DNA from: Methanosphaera stadtmanae DSM 3091
Lineage (GTDB): Archaea; Methanobacteriota; Methanobacteria; Methanobacteriales; Methanobacteriaceae
Assembly: GCF_000012545.1 (NCBI RefSeq)
Contig: NC_007681.1
Span: 540,001-572,000 of the forward strand
Direction of reading: 5' to 3'
DNA length: 32,000 nucleotides
Shown: piece by piece, positions 2,494 to 26,647 of the stretch
Numbering within the stretch: position 1 is the first letter of the stretch
How the letters are laid out: each line of letters starts with the position of its first letter
Notes under the pieces: generated by a model
Database searches by the model: none
Told to the model about the DNA's origin: nothing
The model's input: the letters and a program-made list of their open reading frames with translations, nothing else
Position numbers and translations under genes: made by a program

Positions 2494-5400
2494 TTAATAA
2501 TATTTATCTAAAAATCCTAGCCCTTCTTTTTTGATTTGTGAAAAAGGAATTATATCAATAGGATTTTTCTTTAAATAAATTATAGGTAACTCTTCAGATA
2601 CAATAAACATTGAAAATATTTTATAATTTTTTAAATTATTTCCTATTTTATCACCTAATTTATCGAAATTATTTTTTATCCAATCTTCTCTTCTTTGATG
2701 TTTTTTAATCCAGTTTTTATCATCAAAAAATCTTTCTATTTCATGTATAATCTCACGAGGATTTCGAGCACTTTCAATATTTTTACATTCAATTGAAAAT
2801 AATCGTTGTTTATCCTTATCTAATAATAAAATATCAATATCTCCATATTTCGGCTCAACTTTTACAATTTTATCTATTTGTACGTTAGATTCTAATTTAT
2901 AATTAAATTTTTTTGATAAATTGAGATTATCTGCAAACCATTTAAAAACGATTTCATTAAATTCTTTTCCTTTTTTATCAATCATTTTGCTAATTAAAGA
3001 AGTAAATTTTTTGGAAGAATTATTTGTTTTATAGACTCCTTTAGTAATTAAATTTATTAAATTTAAACCAGAATGATAAACATTTCTAAAACCATAAATA
3101 ACCGTTTCATTTTTGTCATTTTTAATAATTAATGGTTTTAGATAATAAGATAAAGACCTTCTAAAAACCCAGGGATAAATATCATTTTCAGAATAACCTT
3201 CCGGTGGTATCTCCCATCTATCACGATATTTTAATGAAAAATTATCTATTGCATATGAAGATTTATTATATTCCCAGTTTAATTCACATTTTAAATGATT
3301 TATTAAATTAGATTTTGAAATAAAAACAATATCTTCTTCATTTTTTTGAGCTAAACTTATCAAAGCATATACAAAATCAGCATATTCTGTTAAAGTTATA
3401 TCAAATTCTGATTTAAATGCTTCATCTAATTCATCACTTGGTTTTTCTTCAATATTACTTTTACTATCAATATTTGTAGAAAAATTATTTATATGTTCTA
3501 ATGATTTATTATTTCTAAAAGTATCAAAAATTTCTCCTAAATTAGTTTTTATACCAAAACGATTTGATTCTAAAGGCGTAATCTCAAAATCTATATAATC
3601 TGAATTTATATAATCGCTATTGAATGTCCATTCAATATAATTATAAGTTAAAGCCATTAAAGTATCAAAATTTTCATTTGATATTTTTACTTTACTATTA
3701 AAATTTTGTTCTGCAGACAATATTTCTATTAAAATTCTAGTACTTATTGATAGTTTATCCAACTCATAATCATCAGAAACAATGTCTTGTATAACACTAG
3801 AATTGTCTTTATTATTAAAATAATAATATAAATTATTAACTGAAGATATAGATCTATTAAATAAAATATTTTCATAATTTAAAATTAATTTTTTTATAAG
3901 ATTATCCCAATCATATTTCACTATCTCTTTTTTTATACATTCTATAAAATAATTTACAATTTGGTGACTTAATTCAACTGATTCTTTTTTAGTTAATTTT
4001 TGATTATAATCAAACTTGCATTGGATTTTTGTTACTAAGTCATTCATTAATAATTGTATATTATGTTCTTGCAATAATCTTATTGGAGTTTTTACAGGAA
4101 TATTATTAATATCTTCTAAATCATATATTAAAATATATTTTTTCAAACCCAAAGACAATTCTTTATGGATAATTTTAAGTATTCTTTCCGGTGTAAATTT
4201 ATTTTCTAAATTATTTTTTTCTAATAAAGTTCCAAATAATTTTAAAATTTCATTCATTAAAAGTAAATCTGCTTCATTATTTTTTTGATTTGAAATAATT
4301 ATTAAATTTTTACTTATTGTGAAATTAATTTCAAATTTGGACACATGACTAGAAATAATTATATTATCTTTCATTTGATTAGTTATTTCACTATTTAAAT
4401 CTAAATTATTCTCTTCAAGATTAAACGAAATAAAAATAGGTTTTTCTTTTAGTAGTTTTAAATCTTTATAAATTTCATCACCAAATTGGCAAAGCCAGAA
4501 ACAAATCGCTTTAGCTATATCAGATTCAAAATTATTTTCACATTTTACCCAAATATTTTGATTTATTATTTTCGTTAAAAATAAATTAGAATAAGCTATA
4601 TACACAAAATCATTAATTTTATTTACATTAATTAAATTATTTTCATATATTTCTAAATGTGAATCTTTATCTTTAATAGCTTTTATTCTTAATTTTTTAG
4701 TAAAATCTGCTGTAAAATCAAATGTTAATAAAGTGGAATCAATTTTTCTATCATCCATATAAAAAGAATGGTTATTATCAATATAAAAACTAAAGATATT
4801 TAAAAAACTGCATCCAAAAATATTACTATTTTTTAACAAATTTGCAAATTTATAAAGTATCAAACTATCATAATTTCCAGAATTAACTAATATCTCAAAT
4901 TCTTCAGTATTAATTATTAAATCATTTTCAGATATTTCTGTAACATACGATCTTCCAGACATACCGACAAATAAAATTATTAATAGATCCCCGTTTAAGA
5001 AATTAGATTTAGATAGATGTTTCTTAACTATTTTTATTCTATTTTTTATTATAAATTTATAATTTAAATCTATCCTTTCACAAGGCCCATTTTTATCATA
5101 ATCCTTTAAATTATCATTAATTAGAATACAATAAGTTAACTTATCAGTATCTATTTTAAAAATTTTATCTTTGAATATTGTATTTTCCCATTTAGGTAGT
5201 TCATAATTTAAATCTTCAAACTGTAATTTATTTTTTAAATTTAACAAAATATTTGACCATAAATAATTCTGATATTTTGATATAAAGTTCTTTTTTTCAT
5301 TATATTTAATTATATTTGATAAAATATTATGCCTAAGTGAAATAGTTAATAATTGGGGATAAATAAGATAAGTATCATCGATTTTTATTATAGGATAGGT

Positions 5401-6246
5401 GAATAAAGGATTTTTGTATATATTTTCTGAATACATTACCTCTTCAAGAGTTTTTTCATTAAAATTTTTATAAAAATCATTTTCATTAAAGATAATATTC
5501 ATAAAACATTTATCACCTATTTCAATAATAAAATCATCGCATATCATTTCTTTAATGTTGATTGAATTCTTAAAAACTTTTAATTTGTTAATATCAAATG
5601 TAACACATTTTTTTAGATTATTTAATTCATTAATATTAGGAAAAAGGATTTCTTCTCTAAATCTGTTATCAAAAACTTCATAACGTTCATGTCCTGATTT
5701 TTTAGCAATAAAATCACTTAAATATAAGATAAATTTTGAATTTTGATAAAAAAGTTCCATAAATTCATCAGAAAAACTAGAAGAATTATATTGAATACAA
5801 TTAATTATATTCTGTAATATATGATACTCAGTTGTAGATGGCCCTGAAAATATAATATTATTTTTATAGAATTCAATGTTGTTTGTAAATAAATTATCTA
5901 TAGGATCTTCTAACAAACCGATTGGCCCTTTTGAAGGAAGATATTTTAGAAATAATTCATTTAGTTCTTTTATTGAAATATCTCTGTTTCCACATTGAGT
6001 GTTTGAGCAGGCAATTTGTGTAGCTACTTCAAGTCGAACATATTGGGACTGATTTTCCGGACATAGGGATAATGCTACTAATGTTTTAATTAATTCTTTC
6101 TGATTATATTTAGAAAATTCTTCTCGTAACATTTTTAAAGCATTATTTGGAAGATTATTTAGATAATTATCTTTTTTTAAACAACATTTTTTATATTTTT
6201 TTCCACTACCACAGTAGCAAGGGTCATTTCTACCAATTTTCATCAT
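2494..6246 (-). CDS. large SEC-C-motif protein with C-terminal PD-(D/E)xK (NERD/restriction-endonuclease-like) signature
   Basis: Uninterrupted 1250-aa ORF. The N-terminus 'GRNDPCYCGSGKKYKKCC' is a SEC-C zinc motif. The C-terminal 'GDIDILLLD-x11-SIECKN' fits a D...ExK nuclease core. I saw no Walker A or NTPase motif. Confidence 0.75.
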   Translation of the reverse strand: MMKIGRNDPCYCGSGKKYKKCCLKKDNYLNNLPNNALKMLREEFSKYNQKELIKTLVALSLCPENQSQYVRLEVATQIACSNTQCGNRDISIKELNELFLKYLPSKGPIGLLEDPIDNLFTNNIEFYKNNIIFSGPSTTEYHILQNIINCIQYNSSSFSDEFMELFYQNSKFILYLSDFIAKKSGHERYEVFDNRFREEILFPNINELNNLKKCVTFDINKLKVFKNSINIKEMICDDFIIEIGDKCFMNIIFNENDFYKNFNEKTLEEVMYSENIYKNPLFTYPIIKIDDTYLIYPQLLTISLRHNILSNIIKYNEKKNFISKYQNYLWSNILLNLKNKLQFEDLNYELPKWENTIFKDKIFKIDTDKLTYCILINDNLKDYDKNGPCERIDLNYKFIIKNRIKIVKKHLSKSNFLNGDLLIILFVGMSGRSYVTEISENDLIINTEEFEILVNSGNYDSLILYKFANLLKNSNIFGCSFLNIFSFYIDNNHSFYMDDRKIDSTLLTFDFTADFTKKLRIKAIKDKDSHLEIYENNLINVNKINDFVYIAYSNLFLTKIINQNIWVKCENNFESDIAKAICFWLCQFGDEIYKDLKLLKEKPIFISFNLEENNLDLNSEITNQMKDNIIISSHVSKFEINFTISKNLIIISNQKNNEADLLLMNEILKLFGTLLEKNNLENKFTPERILKIIHKELSLGLKKYILIYDLEDINNIPVKTPIRLLQEHNIQLLMNDLVTKIQCKFDYNQKLTKKESVELSHQIVNYFIECIKKEIVKYDWDNLIKKLILNYENILFNRSISSVNNLYYYFNNKDNSSVIQDIVSDDYELDKLSISTRILIEILSAEQNFNSKVKISNENFDTLMALTYNYIEWTFNSDYINSDYIDFEITPLESNRFGIKTNLGEIFDTFRNNKSLEHINNFSTNIDSKSNIEEKPSDELDEAFKSEFDITLTEYADFVYALISLAQKNEEDIVFISKSNLINHLKCELNWEYNKSSYAIDNFSLKYRDRWEIPPEGYSENDIYPWVFRRSLSYYLKPLIIKNDKNETVIYGFRNVYHSGLNLINLITKGVYKTNNSSKKFTSLISKMIDKKGKEFNEIVFKWFADNLNLSKKFNYKLESNVQIDKIVKVEPKYGDIDILLLDKDKQRLFSIECKNIESARNPREIIHEIERFFDDKNWIKKHQRREDWIKNNFDKLGDKIGNNLKNYKIFSMFIVSEELPIIYLKKNPIDIIPFSQIKKEGLGFLDKYY

Positions 6247-6354: not shown

Positions 6355-6876
6355 TTATTTATTCAAAATTTCATCTTTCAACTTTTTAAAATCTTTATCA
6401 TTTATTACGGGTTTACCTTTTAGTTCAATTTCTTTATTAACATTAGCAAAAACCATACCTCTTGATCTACCACAATAAACTGGTTCATCCAATTCATACA
6501 CTCTAAGTAACCAGATATTAGCATTTTTAGTATTAAAGTATCCTGAAACGTGTTTTTTAGTCCATATATGATAATTATTAAACTTACCAATACGACTTAC
6601 AGGTGTTTCAAAGACATCTTCTACTGTAGCATAATATTTAACTTCATATGATTTATCTTCAACGTTTGGTAATGTATTTTTCTTAACAAAATCTTTTTCT
6701 GATTCCTTAAAAGAATCAAGATAATCCTCTTTGTTTGCATAACTAACCATGGGATAAAGTAGGAATTCTTTTAGCGTTGTACTGTTTTTTCTTATAAGTA
6801 TTGTTTGTTTTCCTTGTCCTAATGCTTCTACTGTAGCATTCCAATCATTAAGACATTTAGTAATTTTTACCATCAA
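6355..6876 (-). CDS. DUF1802-like / ASCH-PUA-like small protein
   Basis: 173-aa ORF 108 bp upstream of, and co-oriented with, the SEC-C gene. The N-terminal 'LNDWNATVEALGQGKQTILIRK' (G-x-K-x-T-x-x-x-R style beta-barrel opening) and the later 'IWLLRVYELDEPV' match my memory of DUF1802. The fold assignment is an inference. Confidence 0.55.
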   Translation of the reverse strand: MMVKITKCLNDWNATVEALGQGKQTILIRKNSTTLKEFLLYPMVSYANKEDYLDSFKESEKDFVKKNTLPNVEDKSYEVKYYATVEDVFETPVSRIGKFNNYHIWTKKHVSGYFNTKNANIWLLRVYELDEPVYCGRSRGMVFANVNKEIELKGKPVINDKDFKKLKDEILNK

Positions 6877-7027: not shown

Positions 7028-7180
7028 ATGAATAAAAGCACTACTATAAGAATTTCTATAGACAATAAAAAGAGATTAAATGAAATAGGTAACGTAAACG
7101 ATAGTTACAATAGTGTAATTTCGAAACTCTTAGACGAATATGATAAAAATAAAATATTACGGAAAAAAGGACAGTTATAA
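7028..7180 (+). CDS. small ribbon-helix-helix (CopG/Arc-like) putative transcriptional regulator
   Basis: 50-codon ORF not in the supplied track: MNKSTTIRISIDNKKRLNEIGNVNDSYNSVISKLLDEYDKNKILRKKGQL. It has a beta-strand ('TIRISID') then a two-helix pattern typical of RHH. It ends 14 nt before the helicase ATG. Confidence 0.5.
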   Translation: MNKSTTIRISIDNKKRLNEIGNVNDSYNSVISKLLDEYDKNKILRKKGQL

Positions 7181-7194
7181 TCTATGGTGATTAT

Positions 7195-10100
7195 ATGAAA
7201 CCTCCAAAATCGTTAAACAATAAAAATCAAGATACTGTTTTCAACGAATTAAATGAATACTTAACATTTAATTCTAGATTATCTGTTATAAGTGGTTCTT
7301 TCAGTATTTATGCATATAATAAATTAAAAAATAAGTTAAATGATATTGATAATATGCGTTTTATATTCACAGAACCATCTTTTATTAAAAACAAAGATAA
7401 CACAGAAACTCGTGAATATGAAATAAAAGATATTTCTAAAGATATTTTTGGAAACAAATATGAATTAAGACTAAAAAATGAAATGACACAAGGTGCAATC
7501 ACACGTGAATGTGCCGAATGGATAAAAGATAAAGTTGAAGTGAAAAGCTATATCAATTCTAATCCAGCGTATCCTAGAATGATACACTTAGGAAATAAAG
7601 AAGATGAAAAATGTATTAGTATTAATGGAACTGTTGATTTTACTAGTGATGGTCTAGGAATTACACCATCCAATAGACAAGACAATAATACATGTATGTA
7701 TGGTAAAACATGGACAGACAGCCAATTAATGATATTTGAACAACAATGGAACGATACCCAATTAGTAGAAGATGTTAAAGATGAATTTCTTAAGCATTTA
7801 CAGACCATGTATGCAGAAAATTCACCAGAATTCATATACTATTATAGCATGTACCATTTATTCAATGATTACTTACATAACACAGATAAAAATACATTAC
7901 CTAAGACAGAAACAGGGTTTAAAGAAACAAAAATATGGAATACTTTATATAAGTTTCAACAAGATGCAGTAATGGGTGCAATTGATAAAATTGAAAAATA
8001 TAATGGTTGTATAATTGCAGATAGTGTAGGATTAGGAAAAACATATACTGCCTTAGCCATTATGAAATATTATCAACTAAGAAACGATCGTATACTAGTG
8101 CTAGTTCCTAAAAAATTAAGAGACAACTGGACAGTATACATAAAAAATGATAACGTAATATTTTTTTAATGAAGACCGATTTAATTATGATGTGTTAAAT
8201 CATACAGACCTTAGCAGATACAAAGGAAAAAGTGGAGATATTGACCTAAAAACATTAAATTGGGGTAACTATGACTTAGTAGTAATTGATGAATCACACA
8301 ATTTCCGTAATAATCCACAATATAAAGATAAAACAACACGATATCAACGATTAATGAATGAAATTATAAAAAGTGGAGTAAAAACCAAAGTTCTCATGTT
8401 ATCAGCAACACCTGTAAACAACAAAATGACTGATATAAAAAATCAAATCGCACTTATCACAGAAGAACATGATGATGCCTTAACCCACATAGGAATTAAC
8501 AGCATAGATTCAACGCTTAGAACAGCACAAAAAGTATTCAATGAATGGAGTAAATTAGATGCAGAAGAACGAACTACTGAAAACTTCACAAACAAAGTAA
8601 ATACAGACTATTTCAAGCTATTAGATACACTCACTATAGCACGTAGCCGTAAACATATCTTAAAATATTATGATGATAAAGAAATAGGAACATTTCCAAC
8701 AAAACTAGAACCAGAAAATGTAAGATCAGAAATTGACATCAAAAATGAATTCCCTTCAATCAAAGAAATTGATGCTATAATCAATAACCTAAATTTAAGT
8801 GTATATTCACCAGTTAAATACATCCTACCAAACAAAATACAAGAATATACAGAAATACTTGACCAAGAAGTTAAAGGTGGAACTTCAACATTCACCCAAT
8901 TAGATCGTGACACGAATATTGTCCATCTTATGAGAACCAGTCTACTAAAACGTCTGGAAAGTTCAATATACTCATTCAAGAAAACTGTACAAAAAACGCT
9001 TAACAAAATAAACTACTGCTTAACGTTAACAACAAACAGTGTCAATTATGTTAGTGGAATTGATGAAGATTTGTTGGACTCTGAAGAAGAATATGAAGAA
9101 TATAGTTTTGGACAAAATAAAACAAAAACCATTAAATTACAAGATATGGATTTAATACGATGGAAAAAAGACCTAGAAACAGACAAACAACAACTAGAAG
9201 AATTATTAAAAGATGCAGAACAAATAACAGCCCAACGTGACCAAAAATTACACAACTTAAAACAAAAAATAGACGAGAAAATTAACAACCCCATAAACAA
9301 AGACAATAAGAAAATAATCATATTCACAACATACGCAAATACGGCAGAATACCTATATGACAACCTTCATAAAGAAATAAAAGAAAAATACAATCTAAAC
9401 ACAGCATTAGTAACAGGAGGACATAAAAATAAAACTACAATGAAAAAAGTATCTGCAAATGATATAAACGATGTACTATTAAATTTCTCACCAAAATCCA
9501 AAGAAAGAGAAAAAATAGAACCAGAAAAAACAGAAGAAATAGACATACTAATCGCTACTGACTGTATCAGTGAAGGGCAAAACTTACAAGACTGTGATTA
9601 CTTAATAAACTATGACATACATTGGAATCCTGTAAGAATCATACAAAGATTCGGAAGAATCGACCGTATAGGTTCAGCAAACAAAGAAATACAACTAGTA
9701 AACTTCTGGCCAGACTTAGAACTAGACGAATACATAGATTTAAAAGAAAGAGTAGAAAATCGTATGGTAATGGTAAACGTTTCAGCAACAGGAGACGAAA
9801 ACTTACTAGATAAAAACAAAAAACATGAACTAGAATACAGACGAAAACAACTACAACAACTACAAGACCAAGTAATAGAACTAGAAGACATAAGCGGTGG
9901 AATCTCAATAACAGACTTAACCTTCAACGACTTCAAAATAGAATTAATGGAATACAAAGACAAAAATGAAAAAGAACTAGAAAAAACACCAAACGGAACC
10001 TACTCTATTGTAAAAATACCGTCAGAACTAGAAAATGAACTACAAAAAGGAGTGATATTCCTACTAAAAGAAACAAAAACAACAAACCAAGAAAACCCAT

Positions 10101-10435
10101 TAAGCCCATACTATTTAACATACATCACAGAAGACAAAACAGTAGAATACAATTACACGCAATCTAAAAAAATAATGGACTACTATAAAAAACTATGCTC
10201 AGGTAAAACAGAAGTATATCAGGACCTAGTACAAATATTCAACAAAGAAACCAGAAATGGTATAAAAATGGATAAATATTCAGAACTATTACGACTAGCC
10301 ATAGAAAATACGCAAGGAAAAACAGAAGAAGTAGGAGTAAAAAGCCTATTCAGAAGAGGACCAACAACGCGCACAAAAAAAGATATTAATGGATTAGAAA
10401 ATTATGAATTAATAACATTCTTAATATTGATGTGA
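7195..10435 (+). pseudogene. SNF2-family helicase with N-terminal degenerate PLD-like domain, split into two ORFs (7195-8169 and 8159/8192-10435) by a frameshift in a T7 run
   Basis: GGTGAT RBS before ATG 7195. Motif I 'ADSVGLGKTYTALA' lies in ORF 1. Motif II 'VVIDESHNFRN', 'LMLSATPVNN' and 'SEGQNLQDCDYLINYDIHWNPVRIIQRFGRIDRIGS' lie in ORF 2. Removing one T from T7 (8161-8167) fuses the frames as ...NDNVIFFNEDRFNYDVLNHTDLS... The N-terminal 'IHLGNKEDEKCISINGTVDFTSDGLG' resembles an HKD/PLD motif with K replaced by G. Confidence 0.8.
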
Positions 10436-11184
10436 TATCTATGGATCTATACAAAGATTTGCTGAATTATCCTGATGAATGTCTAGATAATCGGAAAATT
10501 CATAAAACATTAATTTATGAAAATGGTGATTTGAAAACAAGAGATAAAAAAATAATAGAACAAAATATAGAACTAATAACATGGAAATACGCATTCACAA
10601 AAGAAGATCTTAACATACCTTTCTATGTTGATGAAATACGAGAATACTTAGAAGTCGAAATTGTGGAAATACAATTAAGAAAAAAACAAAAAATAAAGAG
10701 AATAGCAGATATCCTCTTTAGAACAATGCCACACCCCTCTTTACTATTCTTCAGATATAAAAATGAAGTAAATATTTATGCTGCACATGTAAAAAAACAC
10801 GGCTCAGATTACTCAATATTTACATATGAAGAAGAAATGATAAAAACAGGATGGATAAATTTTAATCAGATAAATAAAAAAACAGAAAAACTAATGAATG
10901 ATTTAAAACTAGAAAATCTGAACAATATGAACTTTTATACATTATACAATGACGTGTATAATGCATTAATAAACTATAGATCTTACATCTTAAAAAATGA
11001 AAAAACTGGAACGTTCATAGATGAAAAAAAGAAAATTTTGAAAGAAATAGATGAAATAGAGAATAATATTAAAGAATTAAAAACCCAAATCAAAAAAGAT
11101 ATTAATTTCAATGAAGTAGTGGAATTAAATATACAAATTAATGAATATGAAAAAGAAAAAGTAGAATTAATCAATAGATTATAG
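10432..11184 (+). CDS. DUF4391-like protein
   Basis: 250-aa ORF. Its GTG overlaps the helicase stop (ATGTGA); an alternative ATG is at 10441. The N-terminal 'NRKIHKTLIYENGDL...IELITWKYAFTKEDLNIP' matches my recollection of DUF4391. Its position between a helicase and a methyltransferase is the usual DUF4391 context. Confidence 0.5.
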   Translation: MISMDLYKDLLNYPDECLDNRKIHKTLIYENGDLKTRDKKIIEQNIELITWKYAFTKEDLNIPFYVDEIREYLEVEIVEIQLRKKQKIKRIADILFRTMPHPSLLFFRYKNEVNIYAAHVKKHGSDYSIFTYEEEMIKTGWINFNQINKKTEKLMNDLKLENLNNMNFYTLYNDVYNALINYRSYILKNEKTGTFIDEKKKILKEIDEIENNIKELKTQIKKDINFNEVVELNIQINEYEKEKVELINRL

Positions 11185-11193
11185 GTGACTATT

Positions 11194-12338
11194 ATGGAAA
11201 TCACGAAATTAAATTTAGAATCAGAAGATATTGTCCAAAACAATATAGAACAATTAAAGCAATTATTCCCTGAAATTGTTACTGAAGGTAAAATAGATTT
11301 TTATAAACTTAAAGAGGTTTTAGGTGATGAAATAGATGATGAAGATGAAAAATATGAATTTACATGGAATGGTAAACATGATGCTATTAGAGAGTTTCAA
11401 AAACCATCACATTGTACTTTAAGACCAGACAAAAATAATAGTAAAAATTGGAATACCACTGAAAATTTATATATAGAAGGTGATAATTTAGAAGTTTTAA
11501 AATTACTTCAAAAATCTTATCAAAGTAAAATTAAAATGATGTACATTGATCCTCCTTATAATACAGGTAATGACTCTTTTATATACAAAGATAATTTTCA
11601 AGAAAATGAAACTGAATATATAGAGAAAGAAGAAGAAAGAGGAAAATTTCAATCTAATCCCAATAGTTCTGGACGATACCATACAAACTGGATGAATATG
11701 ATTTATCCATTACTTCGATTAGCAAGAAACTTATTATCAGAAGAGGGCGTATTATTAATAAGTATTGATGATAATGAATTTTCTAATTTAATTGTCATGT
11801 GTAAAGAAATATTTGGTGAAGAAAATATAGATAACTTAATCTGGCAAAAAGTTGATAACGATTCTGGAAAAATGAAAATAACATATAGGGTACGATTAGA
11901 ACATGAATACGTGTTAATTTGTTATAAAAATAAAAATAAAACATACTTTAATAAATTTATCGAAGAAAGAAATTATAAAAATGAGTATGATAATCCTGAT
12001 AACGATCCTAGAGGACCATACAAACAAGCAATTATTTCATCAACAGAAGAAAAATCCAATAAAGATAGTCCTAATTATTATTCAATCACCACACCTTCCG
12101 GAAAAATATTTACCAGACAATGGAGAGTAAGTGAAGAAGAAATGTTAGAATTAATAGGAGAAGATAGGATTTATTTTGGGAAAAATGGAGATTCTGTACC
12201 TTCACTTAAAGCTTTTATTAATGAACCAAAATTATCAACACCTACCACTATATTAAGTGGTGTTGGAACTGCAAAAACTGCTGGAAAAGATATTGAAAAT
12301 ATGTTAGGTTCAAGAAAAATATTTTCTTATCCTAAACC
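11194..12338 (+). pseudogene. mod: Type III-like (beta-class) N6-adenine DNA methyltransferase Mod, 5' fragment truncated by an IS insertion
   Basis: RBS 'taggtga' before ATG 11194. Motifs seen: 'FTWNGK', 'LYIEGDNLEVLKLL', motif IV 'MYIDPPYNTGND', and 'FSYPKP' at the break point. The ORF-track tail WLSSCWVLKKF* (12339-12375) is read-through into the IS inverted repeat. Confidence 0.9.
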
Positions 12339-13867
12339 GTGGCTTTCCAGTTGCTGGGTCTTGAAAAAGTTTTGATCAAAAAAAATTTGAAAATTTATTT
12401 GAAGATGTAAAAATTTATTTCTTATCTTAATTTTTATTAAAATAAGAAAATAACGTTACACTTGAAATACACGACTCATCAAAATTCAACAAAAACTTTA
12501 ATATAAAAAATAAGAATAATAAACTATTTATTATAGAAAAGGAATAGATATTAATATGAAAACCCAAATATCTAATTCCTTAAAGGATAATATGTCCTCA
12601 ATACAACTTAAACTTAACGATTTTGGTCTCAAAGATCCAATTAAAAAAAATACTGAAGAACTCTTTAAAACTAAAAATACAAGACCTATCAACCAAGAAT
12701 ATGTTTATTTAAATGATAATCACTTTGAATATGATAACCCCACCTGTTCACATTGTCACAAAAAACACGAAAAACATAAAGTTATTAAAAAAGGATTCCG
12801 AACAAGAAAAGTCAGAACAACAAATAAAACCAAAATAACAATATTTTTAAGACGTTATCAATGTAAAACATGTGGAAAAAAATTCCAAACAGAATTATCA
12901 TGGCTATATGATAAAAATAAAAGATACACTAAACAATTTTTTGAATTGATAGATAAAATAATGGAATTTAGAAATATACCATTATCTCTACTACAACATA
13001 TAATAAACGTAGTTCTAAATACTAATATAAATCTTCAAACACTTGAATTTTGGATAAAAATAAAAAATAAATTCTCTAGAAACAAAGAATACTTAAAAAT
13101 AGAACTAATTAAAGATAAAAACATGATAATCAATCATAACATCATTGGATCAGGAATTTATAACTACGACGAACAATACATTAAAATCAACGGAAAAAAA
13201 TACTATCGATTAACACTATACGACTACTCCAAAGACCAACCAATCGCAGAACAAATCATAAAGAAAGAATGGAATAAAAAATCACTCTCAAGCAAAACAA
13301 TAGAAGAATTCATAAAAACAGCAACAAAAGAACGACCATTCAAAGCACTAATAACAGACGGAAAAAAACAATACAACGAAATAGCAAAAAAACTACGTGT
13401 ACAACACCAAACATGTATATTCCACGCAATAAAATACATAAAGGACGAAACAAAAAAATACTTAAGATCAAAAACACTATCAACATTAGATAAAATTACA
13501 ATTGCAAACCAAACATCACAAATATGCCAAATATATAGAGAATTAAGTATTTATGATACATACAAAACACTAAATGAACTAAAAGACATAGAAAACCAAC
13601 TATTAAAACCAATCAAAAAAATACTAAACACCACAGTAGAAAACAACATAAACAAAATAATAACACACCACTTATACTCTGAAATACCAAGAACAAACAA
13701 CGCAGTAGAACAATACTACAGAAACTCTTTACCAAAATCAAAGAAAAACAAAAAAAGAACCATTGACGGCGTACTAACAACAATAGCAACTGAAATGATG
13801 AAAAAATTTAAAAATACAAAAGAAAAATAAATATTCAAAAATCAAGACCCGACAACTGGAAAGCCAC
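12339..13867 (+). mobile_element. 1529-bp insertion sequence (ISM1-like?) with 26-bp imperfect terminal inverted repeats and an 8-bp target-site duplication
   Basis: IRL is 12339-12364, GTGGCTTTCCAGTTGCTGGGTCTTGA. The reverse complement of IRR (13842-13867) is GTGGCTTTCCAGTTGTCGGGTCTTGA, giving 24/26 identity. It is flanked by direct repeats CCTAAACC at 12331-12338 and 13868-13875. Deleting 12339-13875 restores an in-frame mod: ...FSYPKPKELIKHLINMVTD... Confidence 0.9.
12556..13830 (+). CDS. IS transposase (DDE type with N-terminal CxxC...CxxC zinc finger)
   Basis: 424-aa ORF filling the IS. Zinc finger: 'CSHCHKK...CKTCGKKF'. Candidate DDE residues lie in 'YNYDEQYIKING', 'ALITDGKKQY' and 'NNAVEQYYRN'. 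Confidence 0.85.
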   Translation: MKTQISNSLKDNMSSIQLKLNDFGLKDPIKKNTEELFKTKNTRPINQEYVYLNDNHFEYDNPTCSHCHKKHEKHKVIKKGFRTRKVRTTNKTKITIFLRRYQCKTCGKKFQTELSWLYDKNKRYTKQFFELIDKIMEFRNIPLSLLQHIINVVLNTNINLQTLEFWIKIKNKFSRNKEYLKIELIKDKNMIINHNIIGSGIYNYDEQYIKINGKKYYRLTLYDYSKDQPIAEQIIKKEWNKKSLSSKTIEEFIKTATKERPFKALITDGKKQYNEIAKKLRVQHQTCIFHAIKYIKDETKKYLRSKTLSTLDKITIANQTSQICQIYRELSIYDTYKTLNELKDIENQLLKPIKKILNTTVENNINKIITHHLYSEIPRTNNAVEQYYRNSLPKSKKNKKRTIDGVLTTIATEMMKKFKNTKEK

Positions 13868-13875
13868 CCTAAACC

Positions 13876-14671
13876 AAAAGAATTAATTAAACATTTAATT
13901 AACATGGTTACGGATACTAATTATTCACTAAATCCAAATTATCCAAAATCTAGAAAAATTTTTTATCCTGGAGTAAAAATGTCAACTTCAAAACCAGAAC
14001 AAAATATAATATTAGATTTCTTTTCAGGTTCTGCAACAACAGCAGAAGCTGTGATGGATTTAAATCTTCAAAATAATTTAAATAATAAATTTATCATGAT
14101 TCAATATCGTGAAAAAACAGATGAAAAATCTGAAGCCTACAAACAAGGTTATAATACAATTTGTGAAATAGGTGAAGAACGTATACGTCGAGCTGGTGAT
14201 AAATTGTTAGATGAACATCCAGATAGTAATATAGATATTGGTTTTAAAGTTCTGAAATTAGACACCTCAAATTTTAAAGAATGGGATCCTAGTGATAGTC
14301 CTTTAGAAGAATATCTTGATGATAGTGTGATTAATGTAAAAGAAGATAGAACTGATTTAGATTTTATTTATGAAATCATGATAAAATATGGAATTGAATT
14401 AACATCACCTATAGAAGAAATTAAAAAATCTAATTATACATTCTATTCTGTTGGTTATGGAGCATTAATAGTTTGTTTAGATGATAAAGTAAATGAAGAC
14501 GTAACTGAGGAAATAATTGAAATAATAAATGAAATAGAAATAGTCGATGAAAATAAGAAACACAAGAATAGGGTTGTATTTAAAGATATTAGTTTCTTAG
14601 ATGATTCTGTAAAAACTAACATTATCCAAGTACTAGAAAACAACAACATTGAAGACTTTATTACTTATTAA
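13876..14671 (+). pseudogene. mod: Mod methyltransferase, 3' fragment (SAM-binding motif I region)
   Basis: This frame is continuous with the right TSD copy (CCT AAA CCA AAA GAA...). It contains 'ILDFFSGSATTAEAVMDLN' (motif I, FxGxG-like) and 'ICEIGEERIRRAG'. Motif order IV then I across the two fragments indicates a beta-class permuted MTase. Confidence 0.9.
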
Positions 14672-14685
14672 GTTGGTGATTGTTC

Positions 14686-17673
14686 ATGGAATTAAATTTT
14701 GAATCAAATTTGGAATACCAACAAGATGCTATTGGTTCTATTGTAGATTTGTTTAATGGCCAAGCTTCTGATAATTCCCCTTTTCAACTTGGTGGTTTTT
14801 ATAGAACAACTACTTTAGATGATTATGGTAAAACAGCCAGTAATATTGGTATTGGAAATCGTCTTGATTTACGTGAGGACATAATATTAGAAAATATTAG
14901 AAAGGTACAATTAAAAAATGAAATTACTCCTACAGACAACATTAACAAAAGTAAATTAAAATTTACTGTTGAAATGGAAACAGGAACTGGTAAAACTTAC
15001 GTTTATCTTAGAAGTATTTTTGAATTAAATAAAAATTATGGTTTCACTAAGTTTATTATAGTTGTTCCTAGTCTTGCTATCAAAGAAGGAGTTAAAAAAA
15101 CATTAGATATAACACGAAACCACTTCAAAGGATTATATGATAATCCAATTTATAATTATTTTGTTTATAATAGCAGTAGATTAAATGATATTCATAATTT
15201 TGTTGTGGATAACAATATTAATATTATGATTATTAATATAGATTCATTTAATAAGGATTTAAACTTAATAAATCAACCACAAGATACATTACAGGGTAAC
15301 CGCCCGATTGATTTAATTGCTCAAACAAATCCATTTATTATTATTGATGAACCTCAATCTATCACTGCTAAAAAAGATGGTAAAGGTGAACAAGCTATCG
15401 AAAGATTAAATCCTTTATGTACAGTGAGTTTTTCAGCAACCCCTCCAGACAATAGTGAAAACTATATTTATAAATTAAATGCTGTGGATGCATATAATAA
15501 AAAATTAGTTAAACAGATAGAAGTTGATTCTATTTTATCACATAATGATCATAATTCTCCATATATGAAACTAGTTGAAGTTAAAGCTAAACCTTATAGT
15601 GCTAAAATTGAAATAGATGCTAATGTTAAAGGTGTAACTAAAAGAAAAACTGTGAAAGTCAAAAATAAAACTGATTTATCTGATTTATCTAAACGTGAAA
15701 TTTATACGGGATATATTGTTGATAATATCATTTGTTCTGAAGGCAGAGAATCTGTAGAATTTACTAATGGAGAACGAATTAAATTAAATCTTGCTGTTGG
15801 AGAAACTAATGAAAAACTTATTAAGCGAGAATTAATTCATTACACAATTAAAGAACATTTAGATAAAGAGTTACGCCTTCTTAAAAAAGGTATTAAAGTT
15901 TTATCATTATTCTTTATTGATAAAGTAGCAAATTATAGAATCTACGATAAAGAAGGAAATCCAAATTTAGGAGATTACGCTGTCATATTTGAAGAAGAAT
16001 ATAAGAAACTAATTAAAGAAGATAAATACAAATCACTCATGGAATACAATAATATCAATGTAGATATTAGTCAAGTTCATAACGGTTATTTTGCTCAAGA
16101 TAAAAAAGGTTTTAAAGATACAAATGGTAAAGGAAAACTAGACAATGATGCTTATAATCTTATAATGAAAGATAAAGAAAGATTATTAAATATGAAAACT
16201 CCTTTAAGATTTATTTTCTCTCATTCTGCTTTACGAGAAGGATGGGATAATCCTAATGTGTTCCAAATATGTACTCTTAATGAAACTAGGTCAAAAATGA
16301 AAAAACGACAAGAAATTGGTCGTGGTTTAAGATTATGTGTAGATCAAGATGGAAATAGAATTAAAAATAATCCGAATATTAATATTTTAACTGTTATGGC
16401 TAATGAAAGTTATGATCAATTTGCTGAAGGATTACAAAAAGAAATTGAAGAAGATACTGGAATTAAATTTAATAGAATAACTGACACATCATTTAGTTTC
16501 ACAAAATATACTAATAGAAAAGGTGATGAAGAAGAGTTAGGTGATCAGAAATCAAAATTAATCTATAAATATCTTGAAGCGAATGGTTATATTAAAAAAG
16601 ATGGTAAGATATTACCTCAACTTGAAATTGATATTGAGAAGGGTGAATTTAAATTAGCTCCAATAGTAGAAGATATTGCCAGTGATAAAGAAGAATTACG
16701 TAATAATATAATAAATGAAATTCGCACATTAACTGCACCTCCAATAGTTAAAAAACGTGGTGATAGAAAAACTATAAAACTAGATTATGACAAGTATAAA
16801 AAAGAAGATTTCTATAAAATATGGAATAAAATTAAACATAAATCCATGTATAAAGTACAATTTGACACGGAACGATTAATTGAAGAATGTTCTAAACGTT
16901 TGCATGAAGAATTAAACATTGGTAATCCTACGGTAATATTTACTAAAGCAGGTTATAAAATTGAATATAGTGGTATTGAACCACAAGAGGAAATTTGGGA
17001 TGTGATTGAATCACAGGGAGATAGTGTAGATTTACCAAACATATTACAATATTTACAAAATGAAACTACACTTACTAGAAAAACGCTTGCCCGAATTTTA
17101 ATTCAAAGTGAAACTTTAAATCAATTTAAGAAAAATCCTGAAGAATATAAAGAACAAACTCTTCTAATAATCAAAGAGGAATTAAGAAGATTCTTAGTAG
17201 ATGGAATTGCATATACCAAAATTGAAGATTGCTATGATGAAGATGAATTTGAAAGACATGAACTTTTCCGTTATGTTAATGAACTAGGAGAAGATGATAA
17301 ATCAGAAAGAAGTTATAAATCTCCTTATGAATACACTATATTTGATTCAGGTATTGAAAAATCATTCCAAGAAAAACTTGAATTCAGTAATTTAATTAAA
17401 TTTTATATGAAGTTACCAGGATGGTTTGAAATAGATACTCCTATAGGTAAATATAATCCAGACTGGGCAATATTAGTAGAAAGAGAAGGTAAAGAAGAGT
17501 TATATTTCATTGTTGAAACAAAAGGAACGAGTAATATTAAAGAACTAAAACCATCCGAACAATACAAAATTAAATGTGGAATAGAACATTTCAAAGCATT
17601 AGATGAAAGTATACAATTTGAAGTTGAAAGTGATTTTGAAGAATTTAAAATGGACACAATAAGTAAATATTAA
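14686..17673 (+). CDS. res: Type III restriction enzyme Res subunit (SF2 helicase plus C-terminal PD-(D/E)xK nuclease), apparently intact
   Basis: GGTGA RBS before ATG 14686; the track start at 14680 is a TTG. Motifs seen: 'METGTGKTYVY', 'FIIIDEPQS', 'SFSATP', 'SALREGWDNPNVFQICTL', 'QEIGRGLRL'. The C-terminal 'YNPDWAILVE...YFIVETKG' is the nuclease core. Confidence 0.9.
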   Translation: MELNFESNLEYQQDAIGSIVDLFNGQASDNSPFQLGGFYRTTTLDDYGKTASNIGIGNRLDLREDIILENIRKVQLKNEITPTDNINKSKLKFTVEMETGTGKTYVYLRSIFELNKNYGFTKFIIVVPSLAIKEGVKKTLDITRNHFKGLYDNPIYNYFVYNSSRLNDIHNFVVDNNINIMIINIDSFNKDLNLINQPQDTLQGNRPIDLIAQTNPFIIIDEPQSITAKKDGKGEQAIERLNPLCTVSFSATPPDNSENYIYKLNAVDAYNKKLVKQIEVDSILSHNDHNSPYMKLVEVKAKPYSAKIEIDANVKGVTKRKTVKVKNKTDLSDLSKREIYTGYIVDNIICSEGRESVEFTNGERIKLNLAVGETNEKLIKRELIHYTIKEHLDKELRLLKKGIKVLSLFFIDKVANYRIYDKEGNPNLGDYAVIFEEEYKKLIKEDKYKSLMEYNNINVDISQVHNGYFAQDKKGFKDTNGKGKLDNDAYNLIMKDKERLLNMKTPLRFIFSHSALREGWDNPNVFQICTLNETRSKMKKRQEIGRGLRLCVDQDGNRIKNNPNINILTVMANESYDQFAEGLQKEIEEDTGIKFNRITDTSFSFTKYTNRKGDEEELGDQKSKLIYKYLEANGYIKKDGKILPQLEIDIEKGEFKLAPIVEDIASDKEELRNNIINEIRTLTAPPIVKKRGDRKTIKLDYDKYKKEDFYKIWNKIKHKSMYKVQFDTERLIEECSKRLHEELNIGNPTVIFTKAGYKIEYSGIEPQEEIWDVIESQGDSVDLPNILQYLQNETTLTRKTLARILIQSETLNQFKKNPEEYKEQTLLIIKEELRRFLVDGIAYTKIEDCYDEDEFERHELFRYVNELGEDDKSERSYKSPYEYTIFDSGIEKSFQEKLEFSNLIKFYMKLPGWFEIDTPIGKYNPDWAILVEREGKEELYFIVETKGTSNIKELKPSEQYKIKCGIEHFKALDESIQFEVESDFEEFKMDTISKY

Positions 17674-17687
17674 TGGAGGTTCTATAT

Positions 17688-17963
17688 ATGACAACAAAAG
17701 ATAGTTCATCAAATAATCAGTCAAATAATAGTTCTAATAATAGTTCTAATAATAGTTCTAATAATAGTTCTAATAATAGTTCTAATAATAGTTCTAATAA
17801 TAGTTCTAATAATAGTTCTAATAATAGTTCTAATAATAGTTCTAATAATAGTTCTAATAATAGTTCTAATAATAGTTCTAATAATAGTTCTAATAATAAC
17901 AATTCTGGTTGGACTAGCAATAATAGAAGAAACACAGTAACTAAATCAAACGGCGAAAAATAA
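17688..17963 (+). CDS. small Asn/Ser-repeat protein (91 aa), function unknown
   Basis: A strong GGAGG (17675-17679) sits 8 nt before ATG 17688 and overlaps the res stop. The product is MTTKDSSSNNQS-(NNSS)x14-NNNNSGWTSNNRRNTVTKSNGEK. The RBS supports coding status, but the extreme low complexity keeps it uncertain. Confidence 0.45.
   Translation: MTTKDSSSNNQSNNSSNNSSNNSSNNSSNNSSNNSSNNSSNNSSNNSSNNSSNNSSNNSSNNSSNNSSNNNNSGWTSNNRRNTVTKSNGEK
17724..17891 (+). repeat. perfect tandem repeat, 14 copies of the 12-bp unit AATAATAGTTCT
   Basis: Read directly from the sequence: 168 bp with no mismatch, and in frame (NNSS per unit). Confidence 0.95.
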
Positions 17964-17995
17964 TAAATAAAATATAAATATTATTAAGGATACTT

Positions 17996-18508
17996 ATGAT
18001 AGAATCAGATATTAAACGATATGAACTTTTATTGGATTTGCTACAAAAAAGCAAAAAAGAACAAGATGAACAAAATAACACATTAGATCAAAAATGTAGT
18101 TCTATGATTAATATTTTAATTTTAATCATAACAATACAATGTGGCATTTATGCTAATGTTGCTTTATTAAACGAAATTGCATCAAGTGAAATAGCGATAA
18201 TAATCAAAGTGTTATTAATAATAACATTAATTGGTAATTTTATTGCGTTATATTTCTTTATTGCTGCTTATTATTTAAAAGATTTTGAAGGGATGACAAA
18301 TGAAGAAGATATAATTAAATATGGAGAAAATAATACAAATCTTGAAACAATATACAAAGAGATATCTGTTGACTATAAAAGAACAATTGAAGAAAATAAG
18401 ATAGAATTATCCAAAATAGATAAAATAAAATTAGGATTTAAAATTGTTACTTTAACAACGGGAATCTTTGTATTAACTATCATTATTTGTTTAGAAATTT
18501 TAATTTAA
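17996..18508 (+). CDS. small membrane protein with three predicted TM helices, unknown function
   Basis: 170-aa ORF with an AAGGA RBS. Hydrophobic stretches are 'MINILILIITIQCGIYANVALL', 'IAIIIKVLLIITLIGNFIALYFFIAAYYL' and the C-terminal 'IVTLTTGIFVLTIIICLEILI'. The N-terminus and the loop are charged. Confidence 0.6.
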   Translation: MIESDIKRYELLLDLLQKSKKEQDEQNNTLDQKCSSMINILILIITIQCGIYANVALLNEIASSEIAIIIKVLLIITLIGNFIALYFFIAAYYLKDFEGMTNEEDIIKYGENNTNLETIYKEISVDYKRTIEENKIELSKIDKIKLGFKIVTLTTGIFVLTIIICLEILI

Positions 18509-18523
18509 CATCTTCATTAAATC

Positions 18524-18531
18524 TTTTTTTT
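18524..18531 (+). terminator. oligo-T (T8) tract, candidate archaeal terminator for the res-to-membrane-protein transcript
   Basis: A T8 run lies 16 nt after the stop at 18508. Archaeal RNA polymerase terminates at oligo-T tracts (established knowledge). Confidence 0.3.
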
Positions 18532-18580
18532 CATTAAACATTATCAGATAATTTAAGTAATAACAGATATGAGATAAATT

Positions 18581-18728
18581 TGTAGCACATTTCACATTTG
18601 TGCTACTTTTTTGTGCTACAATTCCATCGTGTGCCACATCATTTTCCATGATATTTTTGTGCTACATTTCCCTTTTGTACCACATTTTTTGCCCCTATTT
18701 TTGTGCCACAACCTCCATTTGTGCTACA
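18581..18728. repeat. iteron-like array of eight T-rich-flanked GTGCYACA boxes (one inverted, seven direct)
   Basis: Boxes: TGTAGCAC at 18581 (inverted); GTGCTACt at 18600; GTGCTACA at 18613; GTGCCACA at 18631; GTGCTACA at 18659; GTACCACA at 18677; GTGCCACA at 18703; GTGCTACA at 18721. Most are preceded by TTT. Spacings are 13, 18, 28, 18, 26 and 18 bp. The first two boxes form an 8-bp-stem palindrome. Confidence 0.7.
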
Positions 18729-19227
18729 AAAATATTTTTTACTTCGTTATATGTGGATATAACGAATTAAAAAATCAGAGCTCATCGTTGATGATTATAG
18801 AAAAATGTAATTTTAAAAATAGAAATAAAAAATAAATTATCAAATGTGGTGACTTTAACATTTGATTTCCCTTTAACTAAGAATGTTTTCATAAGTACAA
18901 AAAAACTTAAAAGGTTCAAAAATGTTCAATGGATATAAAACCTATGAAAATTAAACTCTTCAAATCATAATCCCATCTCTTATTATCTGCATGCAATTCT
19001 ATAGGATATGTTACTATTAATTTTACTAGTCACCATAGTAATATGATATCAAAGTTAATCCATAGATTTTTCCTAATCTCCTTAACAATTACTAACTTAT
19101 TCATATCCCCCCGTGTCATTGACATGAATAACTAATATTTTGCTAGGATAATACTCTTTATTCTTGGTTTTGTCCTCCTTTTGGATTTGTTTATTAATGC
19201 ATCATATAATATTTTTACCAAATATTT

Positions 19228-22037: not shown

Positions 22038-22150
22038 ATATACCCAATACCTCTCTCAATTTTAATCTTAACACTTATTTAAACTATTTGTCTTTATTAT
22101 ATTATAATTCTGTTATATATTCCATTATGGTGTTACGTGAAAAAATATTG

Positions 22151-22228
22151 TGTCCTACATTCTTGTGACACATACCTTTATATAGTAAGTATATAAAAAT
22201 ATATTATTAGTCCTATAAATGTATGACA
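22151..22228. promoter_or_regulatory. two-box module B: TGTCCTACATTCTTGTGACA (22151-22170) and aGTCCTATAAATGTATGACA (22209-22228) flanking TATA boxes in the hsdR / hsdS-M divergent promoter region
   Basis: TATA-like 'tttatata' and 'gtatataaaaatat' lie between the boxes. Each box sits where a TSS would be expected, about 25 bp from a TATA, for one of the two divergent transcripts. Confidence 0.5.
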
Positions 22229-22268
22229 ACATTTTTGATATTAACAAATAACAGGGGAGGTAAATGAT

Positions 22269-24345: not shown

Positions 24346-24355
24346 AGGGGATTAT

Positions 24356-25573: not shown

Positions 25574-25600
25574 TTTATATGAAATTACACATAATACTTT

Positions 25601-25978
25601 ATGAAAGACAACAAACATTTACTTAAATTTTCTAAGGATCGAAATATAAAAAATAGTACAATGAAAGGTTATATCTCTACTTTAAAGAGGTATACTTCTT
25701 TTCATAACATGACAATAGATGAATTATTAAATGAAGCATATGCTGATGAAGAAAAAAGAATTCTTCTTAAAAATAGACGAATTAAGAATCGTTTATTGGA
25801 TTATAGAACACATCTTATTTCTCTTGACATGTCACATAATACTGTTAAAACCTATTTTTCTAAACTTATCACCTTTTATTTACATTTTGAAATTGAAATA
25901 CCAAAACTTCCTGATCTTAAATATAATAAAAACTATGAAACAAATTACTTTGATCTTCCAACAAAAAAAAACATATAA
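25601..25978 (+). CDS. tyrosine recombinase, N-terminal core-binding (SAM-like) domain ORF
   Basis: 125-aa ORF. 'TMKGYISTLKRYTSFH...HNTVKTYFSKLITFYLHFEI' is typical of phage-integrase N-terminal domains. It ends just after an A9 run, and its TAA overlaps the next ATG (TAATG). Confidence 0.7.
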   Translation: MKDNKHLLKFSKDRNIKNSTMKGYISTLKRYTSFHNMTIDELLNEAYADEEKRILLKNRRIKNRLLDYRTHLISLDMSHNTVKTYFSKLITFYLHFEIEIPKLPDLKYNKNYETNYFDLPTKKNI

Positions 25979-26643: not shown

Positions 26644-26647
26644 AAGT

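Follow-up and report, generated by a model that had tools for sequence, protein, structure and literature searches.

Type III restriction-modification (R-M) enzymes stand in the textbooks as the minimal form of ATP-dependent restriction, made of a modification subunit (Mod) and a restriction subunit (Res), whose sites communicate via ATP-triggered sliding. In the archaeon Methanosphaera stadtmanae DSM 3091, a 32,000-nucleotide (nt) stretch of contig NC_007681.1 (positions 540,001 to 572,000; hereafter the window, with position 1 at its first letter) contains genes for such a pair, preceded by two further genes that encode a helicase-like ATPase and a protein of the DUF4391 family (Table 1). 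Do these two genes belong with Mod and Res, and if so, what could they contribute? The data presented below show that the four genes make up a variant of Type III R-M that is widespread and uncharacterised, and that is conserved in Bacteria as well as Archaea. Judging from its sequence, the copy in the M. stadtmanae window is a dead relic of this cassette.

To follow the arrangement in other organisms, we carried out a helicase-alignment scan of one genome per species of the Genome Taxonomy Database (GTDB), which yielded at least 588 confirmed matches. Eighty loci were kept and read with hidden Markov models (HMMs) built for the analysis; individual loci are designated below by L numbers. The conserved helicase was used as seed, DUF4391 alignments having either given no matches or been too diverse themselves to serve. 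A DUF4391 gene follows the helicase gene in 70 of the 72 GTDB loci with room for it, the two exceptions showing one inserted gene and then the contig end. Of the 60 loci whose downstream sequence extends for 7.5 kb or more, which span Archaea and no fewer than eight bacterial phyla, 55 have all four genes; in three loci from Bacteroidota the order is permuted (Mod, Res, helicase, DUF4391). Eight metagenomic loci, with close as well as distant DUF4391 homologues, read helicase, DUF4391, Mod (sometimes two) and Res. The same gene order was seen in 7/7 annotated plasmid contexts from six phyla or classes and an archaeal plasmid (hosts: Desulforapulum, Paraburkholderia, Methanomethylovorans, Shewanella, Providencia, Lactiplantibacillus and Acetobacter), with Res disrupted or unannotated in two of the seven. 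The helicase is present on 121 plasmids, and helicase-DUF4391 DNA in 88 of 5426 complete Escherichia coli genomes. The leuX island of E. coli CFT073 (L187, 10096-20661 in locus coordinates) carries intact genes for a WYL/helix-turn-helix (HTH) protein, helicase, DUF4391, Mod and Res. A cassette of the CFT073 type is also carried by strain ABU 83972, and BREX remnants and other defence genes adjoin the CFT073 copy. Intact too is the cassette on a 16.7-kb plasmid of L. plantarum (L018). An initial annotation, made from the letters of the window alone, had stated that this arrangement recurs in bacterial genomes; the recurrence is real and goes far beyond chance.

The four proteins also diverge together. 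In the 53 complete cassettes, all pairwise Mantel correlations lie between r 0.76 and 0.93 (p = 0.001 throughout), with values of 0.93 for helicase and Res, 0.89 for helicase and DUF4391 and 0.85 for Mod and Res; shared host phylogeny may contribute to these figures. Among the matches listed, the nearest relatives of the archaeal helicase include proteins from Clostridium and Veillonellaceae, which indicates that the cassette was transferred as a unit. One could imagine, nevertheless, that the helicase-DUF4391 pair and an ordinary Type III R-M system are independent entities that merely lie side by side in defence islands. The window is itself such an island, with an Upx-like gene, a DUF1802 gene and a Type I R-M system nearby; furthermore, the pair lacks an adjacent Mod-Res in L008 and has other partners in L060, and Mod-Res is found without the pair. 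However, the strand and order shared by 55 of the 60 loci, and the co-divergence just described, oppose such a view. So does the spacing of the genes, since they overlap or abut: in the window, helicase and DUF4391 genes share 4 nt, DUF4391 and Mod genes are directly joined (0 nt) and 8 nt separate Mod from Res. In addition, neither a nuclease nor any other effector is encoded by the pair itself. Two unrelated systems are therefore highly improbable, and the census largely refutes them.

The first additional gene encodes a SNF2-type ATPase, split in the window into two open reading frames (ORFs) for a reason given below. The ORFs match Pfam families SNF2-rel_dom (PF00176) and Helicase_C (PF00271), and motifs I, II, III and VI (GLGKT, DESH, SAT and QRxGRxxR) are invariant in 11 orthologues, so that the motifs and both domains typical of the SNF2 family are present. 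The two fragments further match the PADLOC model C3a139, labelled "HKD+Snf2", at 1.9e-27 and 2.2e-98. C3a139 was dismissed as the name of a defence system, as it denotes a neighbourhood cluster of type III CRISPR loci (Shah et al. 2019).

Ahead of the motor lies a domain that the initial annotation had described as a degenerate HKD-like one, a description that structure prediction upholds. Sequence and profile searches of this domain against PDB and Pfam gave little (PLDc_2 in one of ten orthologues, E 0.0047). An AlphaFold2 (AF2) model of residues 1-245 (mean pLDDT 73.5) was then compared with known structures using Foldseek. The best match is SauUSI (5.9e-7); the R-protein of NgoAVII (6.3e-6), BfiI (1e-4) and phosphatidylserine synthases are also matched, each with probability 1.00, and TM-scores are modest (0.47-0.49). 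The fold is thus that of phospholipase D (PLD). Helicase homologues 36-39% identical to the window protein carry PLDc_2 and RE_NgoFVII matches and an intact "LHGKMYHI...GSSNFT" motif. Where these HKD-intact relatives have H-G-K and GSSN, the window domain reads Y-P-R and GTVD, with His replaced by Tyr and Lys by Arg; the catalytic signature HxK(x)4D...GSxN is absent. The loss is general in the cassettes: out of 80 helicases from different species, none has both His and Lys (His is kept in 2, Lys in 1). Because the ATPase motifs are invariant and the HKD residues are lost, the added helicase is predicted to be a motor bearing a vestigial, catalytically dead nuclease domain, and not a second nuclease.

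The second additional gene (10432-11184), which had been called DUF4391-like, indeed encodes a member of this family. Its product matches PF14335 with 198.5 bits (cut-off 29.9; E 1.9e-58), residues 11-242 covering profile positions 1-231 of 232. Two outcomes had been named beforehand as speaking against the initial annotation, namely that this protein would have no DUF4391 match and that the helicase would show no linkage to Mod and Res elsewhere. Both were looked for and neither was obtained, and the interpretation of the locus as a Type III core augmented with a helicase-DUF4391 pair is supported. The AF2 model of the DUF4391 protein (pLDDT 90.1) consists of an alpha/beta N-terminal domain (residues 1-165) followed by three long C-terminal helices. 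A Foldseek search of PDB and BFVD returned no match reaching E 0.001; CorA and pre-ribosome factors, which were the top matches, were rejected as relatives since their TM-scores are at most 0.2. Lys25 (K25) is the sole invariant residue among 86 sequences. With a single invariant residue and a long helical tail, DUF4391 looks non-enzymatic. The family is large (2593 clusters at 50% identity, with E up to 1e-3), and no characterisation of it was found in the literature searched. The same holds for the arrangement as a whole, in keeping with the statement in the initial annotation that no biochemical work on it was known. No PADLOC model is matched by DUF4391, so that the HMM sets now used to find defence systems would label the locus as plain Type III R-M.

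A clue to the role of DUF4391 came from a sister clade of the helicase, examined in 80 metagenomic loci (L106-L185) out of at least 516 confirmed matches. In these loci, the gene of an HKD-intact helicase comes before that of a large protein (about 1250 amino acids, aa); the two genes are mostly adjacent, with an extra ORF between them in some cases. All five of the large proteins scanned with Pfam combine an N6-adenine methyltransferase of the Eco57I type with a TaqI_C specificity domain, and in three of the five the N-terminus matches PF14335. Direct comparison of the DUF4391 family with the sister N-termini using hhalign gave a probability of 96.9% (E 1.8e-10, 139 columns). The sister system thus shares with the cassette a helicase of the same family (PADLOC C3a139 matched over its full length at 1e-132; N-terminal domains 36-39% identical) and a DUF4391-homologous module placed between motor gene and methyltransferase. 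It differs from the cassette in that its PLD domain keeps HxK and GSxN, so its helicase is presumably a nuclease, and in that Res is lacking; moreover, its DUF4391-like domain is fused to a gamma-class methyltransferase, while the cassette has a beta-class Mod. An AAA_15/SMC-like ATPase gene often comes next in the sister loci, and KilA-N or YhcG/DUF1016 genes are sometimes inserted. No name for this two-gene system, and no study of it, was found in the literature searched.

Type ISP enzymes such as LlaGI and LlaBIII are single polypeptides in which a nuclease-motor is followed by a coupler, a methyltransferase and a target-recognition domain. The sister system resembles an enzyme of this kind split in two. 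When a protein stands free between motor and methyltransferase in one case but forms part of the methyltransferase polypeptide in another, this is a classic indication that the protein works with the methyltransferase. The layout of the sister system, like that of a split Type ISP enzyme, suggests in addition that DUF4391 holds the place of the Type ISP coupler.

The remainder of the cassette is a Type III core. PF01555 is matched by both Mod fragments, which together account for positions 3-618 of the 621 in the PADLOC model MTase_III (PDLC03634): the 5' part matches positions 3-394 (2.2e-120) and the 3' part positions 391-618 (1.2e-70). The motifs "IDPPYNTG" and "DFFSGSATT" are read in the translations, and the order of elements (motif IV, target-recognition region, motif I) is that of a beta-class Mod. 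Encoded beside it, Res matches PADLOC model REase_III (PDLC03647) over its full length at 1.6e-303, as well as Pfam ResIII (1.6e-17) and RE_endonuc (1.8e-36), as befits a Type III Res; its cluster mates are annotated as "type III restriction-modification system endonuclease". The match to NCBIfam PRK15483 (8.9e-108) scores 361 bits, under the model cut-off of 564. By sequence comparison, the window Res belongs to a distinct subfamily. Compared with the canonical enzymes EcoP1I and EcoP15I (Mod2Res1), the cassette has the same beta-class Mod with DPPY motif, the same superfamily 2 (SF2) ATPase and PD-(D/E)xK nuclease in Res, and mod placed before res in one operon. It differs from them by the nuclease-dead PLD/SNF2 ATPase, DUF4391 and a small regulator added upstream, and by its distinct Res.

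The M. stadtmanae copy of the cassette has suffered two lesions. A metagenomic contig (L002), 99.9% identical to the window across the whole locus, served as reference for the intact alleles; it encodes an uninterrupted helicase of 1079 aa, an identical DUF4391, a Mod of 647 aa and a Res of 995 aa. In the helicase gene, the run of seven T residues at 8161-8167 corresponds to six T residues in L002, the sole indel in 6252 aligned bases (99.94% identity), and the additional T breaks the frame between ATPase motifs I and II. The possibility that the run acts as a phase-variation switch was considered and found unsupported: runs of this length are frequent in DNA of 27% GC, and only one other allele was observed. 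The second lesion is an insertion sequence (IS) in mod. The element is flanked by an 8-bp target duplication, CCTAAACC, at 12331-12338 and 13868-13875, and has perfect 15-nt terminal inverted repeats (0.02 such matches expected by chance). L002 is without it, and the two flanks of the window element overlap by 8 bp there. The junction was read directly, and excision in silico restores the Mod frame, which then reads "...SYPKPKELIKHL...". Insertion separates the part of Mod carrying DPPY and the target-recognition region from the motif that binds S-adenosylmethionine (AdoMet). The transposase gave only weak profile matches (IS66, ISH6 and ISL3); by its length, its 8-bp duplication and its methanogen host, the element may be related to the ISM1 family, first described in Methanobrevibacter smithii.

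A functional Type III system needs both mod and res intact; here mod is interrupted and res is intact. With Mod split by the IS and the motor frameshifted, the window copy reads as a double pseudogene, and the system is predicted to be inactive. Since a Type III Res relies on Mod to recognise DNA, the loss of Mod disarms restriction too, and the intact res gene, deprived of Mod, is harmless. The initial annotation had described six co-oriented and tightly packed genes without mentioning either lesion. All the genes it listed are present on the + strand at the right coordinates, but the helicase gene is split and mod is interrupted, and its "sixth gene" corresponds to the transposase or to the second helicase fragment. 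As the frameshift and the IS had been missed, the observation is only partly confirmed.

The locus as a whole is best explained as a decayed copy of a conserved cassette in which a Type III core is combined with a nuclease-dead SNF2 motor that DUF4391 couples to Mod; we give this reading a probability of about 0.5. In an intact cassette, Mod, a beta-class N6-adenine methyltransferase, would read a short asymmetric site and hemimethylate it. DUF4391 would contact both Mod and the motor, tethering one to the other as does the coupler domain of a Type ISP enzyme. The SNF2 motor would provide target-bound Mod with ATP-driven translocation along the DNA, in a system where Res by itself normally just slides, and could thereby assist or license long-range communication and cleavage by Res, whose SF2 ATPase and PD-(D/E)xK nuclease would cut unmodified DNA. 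The small ribbon-helix-helix (RHH) protein encoded upstream would be the controller of the operon. A bolder version of this proposal, which we regard as tentative and somewhat doubtful, is that DUF4391 could be a general coupler of SNF2-type motors to methyltransferases, free with Type III Mod and fused with the Eco57I-type enzymes, and that the cassette could represent a class of two-motor Type III/Type ISP hybrid enzymes.

An added ATPase in a Type III system is not without precedent, since one was reported by Murray et al. 2021 (PMC8259958). These authors described an extra helicase-like ATPase with no known function, encoded directly 5' of mod in Eco86II and BspHIV and conserved in more than 500 genomes. 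As in the cassette, it is a second SF2/SNF2-type ATPase that lacks a nuclease motif and is consistently linked to Mod-Res; compared by description only, it differs in lying immediately 5' of mod, while the cassette has an intervening DUF4391 and a vestigial PLD domain. Plasmids from Rhizobium (L101, p7), Salmonella (L188, pR18.1595_113k) and Klebsiella show an arrangement in which an HTH gene and a gene for another SNF2 protein of about 950 aa precede Mod-Res. This protein, found on 56 plasmids, has no PLD domain, is not followed by DUF4391 and shares only the helicase motifs with the window protein; likened by description only, it probably corresponds to the ATPase that Murray et al. reported.

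Several observations weigh against coupling of the motor to Mod by DUF4391. On plasmid pTs485 of Thiodictyon, Mod, RhuM and Res are encoded without helicase and DUF4391, and this Res is 44% identical to that of the window, as close as Res proteins from cassettes. Because so similar a Res occurs without the pair, the Mod-Res core is probably self-sufficient, and the pair is apparently not obligatory for it. Cargo genes often lie between DUF4391 and Mod, which fits a looser coupling. In the sister system, the DUF4391-like domain is fused to a gamma-class enzyme of the Eco57I type and not to a beta-class Mod, and it is by extension from this fusion that we infer an adaptor role for DUF4391 on Mod. 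DUF4391 has no structural homologue in PDB or BFVD that would confirm a coupler-like fold. Finally, the different ATPase studied by Murray et al. 2021 (PMC8259958) was dispensable for methylation and absent from partially purified, active Eco86II.

The cargo genes mentioned above are part of a broader pattern. Nested genes of defence type were found in loci L020-L099 and L186, either in the DUF4391-Mod or in the Mod-Res interval. They encode SLFN_AlbA_2 with HATPase_c_4 (Schlafen/AlbA_2), Fic, RhuM, Bro-N, AAA_13 and AAA-ATPase_like with PDDEXK_9 proteins, as well as DUF2779, PLDc_2, GmrSD/DUF262, UvrD and an OLD-like nuclease with DUF2130. The cassette is thus an insertion hotspot for other defence-type genes. 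Decayed cassettes are common too, as seen in L020, L025, L078, L082, Acetobacter and the window copy. Other variants depart further from the standard. In L060 (Pseudoxanthomonas sp. Root630, 12144-19012), DUF4391 has a C-terminal extension of about 500 aa, and the places of Mod and Res are taken by two proteins, 585 and 952 aa long, that match no Pfam family. In L008, a short contig, the helicase-DUF4391 pair is followed only by an HTH_11 protein, with no adjacent Mod-Res.

A layered defence hotspot of this kind fits a picture in which the pair serves as a back-up, as an anti-anti-restriction layer or as a control on restriction, with no part in normal cleavage. It could come into play only once Mod-Res has been blocked, for instance by DNA mimics or by phage DNA that is modified, or, through competition for Mod, it could hold Res back from host DNA. 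A second translocation module and an anti-anti-restriction layer were both among the possible roles put forward in the initial annotation. The ability of related Mod-Res pairs to stand alone agrees with such a role, and a dead nuclease domain suggests sensing or remodelling. However, the helicase co-diverges with Res (r 0.93) as tightly as Mod does, the fixed gene order favours a stoichiometric complex over a facultative add-on, and the pair has no effector domain of its own, so that we consider this role unlikely.

The question whether the pair might serve methylation instead is raised by MANTIS (bioRxiv 10.64898/2026.09.23.753747), a system that hemimethylates asymmetric sites and in which an ATPase and a small protein act on a methyltransferase. 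Its MtsA is a DUF499 AAA+ ATPase, MtsB a DUF3870 protein and MtsD an active HKD-helicase effector. Known also as Gao_RL or GAO_29 (BREX-related type 2), MANTIS resembles the cassette in gene logic: in both, an RHH protein and an ATPase come first, then a small protein whose fold is unknown, followed by an N6-adenine methyltransferase and lastly a helicase-nuclease. It differs in that the cassette has a dead-PLD SNF2 protein, DUF4391 and a Type III Res in place of DUF499, DUF3870 and MtsD. Gao_RL was rejected as the identity of the cassette, being MANTIS and built on DUF499 and DUF3870. By analogy, the SNF2 ATPase and DUF4391 could be needed to load Mod, or to activate it, for self-methylation, in the way that MtsA and MtsB serve MtsC, with no part in restriction. 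Besides providing the precedent for an ATPase and a small protein that act on a methyltransferase, MANTIS offers this parallel, and the location of DUF4391 directly before Mod, together with its fusion to a methyltransferase in the sister clade, is in line with it. On the other side, Mod is a standard beta-class Type III enzyme, a class generally self-sufficient in methylation, and with the other extra ATPase Mod alone methylated fully (Murray et al., PMC8259958). Furthermore, a closely related Mod-Res pair does without helicase and DUF4391 on pTs485, and neither the MtsA (ORC/Cdc6-clade AAA+; DUF499) nor the MtsB (DUF3870) family was reported in the Pfam and PADLOC scans of the window locus. 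An activator or loader of Mod is accordingly quite unlikely.

Resemblance to other known defence systems is partial. Like DISARM class 1 (DrmD SNF2, DrmMI, DrmC PLD, DrmA and DrmB), the cassette combines a SNF2 ATPase, a PLD-family domain and an adenine methyltransferase, and DrmD models are the best named partial matches to the helicase (PADLOC 1.4e-36, NCBIfam 2.9e-47). These matches are confined to the C-lobe, at 161 bits against a cut-off of 610. Apart from weak partial DrmA and DrmD matches on the helicase lobes, nothing of the DISARM core was found: no ORF of the locus or its flanks matches DrmB/DUF1998 in the Pfam and PADLOC scans, the DrmA-DrmB core is lacking, and the methyltransferase is a Type III Mod rather than DrmMI. 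The same scans of locus and flanks found no PglZ and no BrxC/PglY, the hallmarks of BREX. The initial annotation was thus right to set the locus apart from both systems. SauUSI, a Type IV enzyme and the best structural match of the N-terminal domain, likewise joins a PLD domain at its N-terminus to an ATPase motor. It differs in being stand-alone and modification-dependent, with an active HKD, while the window protein has lost HKD and is encoded in a methyltransferase operon.

The features of the cassette are collected in Table 1. All sizeable ORFs between 7019 and 17673 are on the + strand in the ORF listing. The first, RHH-like ORF (7028-7180) has a pattern of one beta-strand and two helices; its sole profile match is a sub-threshold one to a VapB/RHH-type antitoxin (E 0.0088). 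In other cassettes, the corresponding position is occupied by an RHH, XRE-HTH, HTH_17 or WYL protein, a statement to be taken qualitatively as the census of regulators, based on the longest upstream ORF, was noisy in GC-rich genomes. A scan for promoters was uninformative in this AT-rich archaeal DNA, with 90 sites against 94 expected, and a search for terminators found none.

Table 1. Features of the decayed Type III cassette in the M. stadtmanae window (window positions).
Feature	Position	Strand	Basis or remark
RHH-like putative transcriptional regulator, 50 aa	7028..7180	+	ATG at 7028; ORF opens at GTG 7019
Helicase pseudogene, inactivated PLD/SNF2 ATPase, in two ORFs (7195-8169 and 8192-10435)	7195..10435	+	Pfam, PADLOC
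PLD-fold N-terminal domain of the helicase, HKD catalytic residues lost	7195..7929	+	AF2 model and alignment
T7 homopolymer with +1 frameshift splitting the helicase	8161..8167	+	T6 in L002
DUF4391 protein, 250 aa, intact	10432..11184	+	PF14335
Type III Mod, 5' part (DPPY motif IV and target-recognition region), ended by the IS	11185..12338	+	PADLOC MTase_III
Insertion sequence, 1529 bp; transposase ORF 12556-13830 (424 aa)	12339..13867	+	Absent from L002
Type III Mod, 3' part (AdoMet-binding motif I "DFFSGSATT" and C-terminus)	13868..14671	+	PADLOC MTase_III
Type III Res, 997 aa, intact (SF2 ATPase and C-terminal PD-(D/E)xK nuclease)	14680..17673	+	PADLOC, Pfam

By the predicted content of its flanks, the cassette lies in a defence island. 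Upstream, a gene on the - strand (2494-6246) encodes a 1250-aa protein with an N-terminal SEC-C motif and a C-terminal half that is Upx-like (NF042954, 7.9e-42, far under the cut-off); a gene for a DUF2971 protein (1177-2250) adjoins it. A DUF1802 gene stands beside the cassette both in the window (6355-6876, - strand) and in L002 (269-787), and in the unrelated locus L009 (12033-13189) DUF1802 is fused to an Mrr_cat nuclease domain directly after Res. DUF1802 may thus be a recurrent neighbour of the cassette. Immediately downstream, a 12-bp tandem repeat, AATAATAGTTCT, extends over 17712-17898 (15.6 copies, 98% matches). It fills a 96-aa ORF (17673-17963) whose first base is the last one of the Res stop codon and which encodes an (SNNS)n protein; the L002 contig ends within this repeat. 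Further on, a Type I R-M cluster (19329-27250) comprises hsdR (- strand), a half-size hsdS, hsdM, a full hsdS, two short integrase-like ORFs and an hsdS remnant. The 3' ends of the hsdS copies share direct repeats (72%); an invertible shufflon was rejected as a reading for want of evidence, no inverted repeats having been found in the cluster. A 251-aa protein encoded at 29890-30645 (- strand), between the genes for phosphoglycerate mutase and homoserine dehydrogenase, shows weak NADAR-family matches, including one to the DS32_2 anti-phage model (1.2e-6, under the cut-off).

For the archaeon itself the message is the smaller one: the locus of the type strain is dead, while other M. stadtmanae populations keep an intact copy. 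For Type III enzymes it is larger, in that the occurrence of a second ATPase and an adaptor of unknown fold throughout a widespread lineage means that part of Type III biology is unexplained. If the bolder version of the proposal is true, a translocating, nuclease-dead SNF2 motor would alter the rules by which sites communicate, one example being a less strict need for inverted sites, with Res doing the cutting. The hypothesis bears on the puzzle of the "extra ATPase" raised by Murray et al. 2021 and gives a Pfam domain of unknown function a testable role, for which the cassette of CFT073, a standard uropathogenic strain, is a convenient experimental model. Through a single module, the fusion of a DUF4391-like domain to an Eco57I-type methyltransferase links Type III, Type ISP-like and HKD-SNF2 systems.

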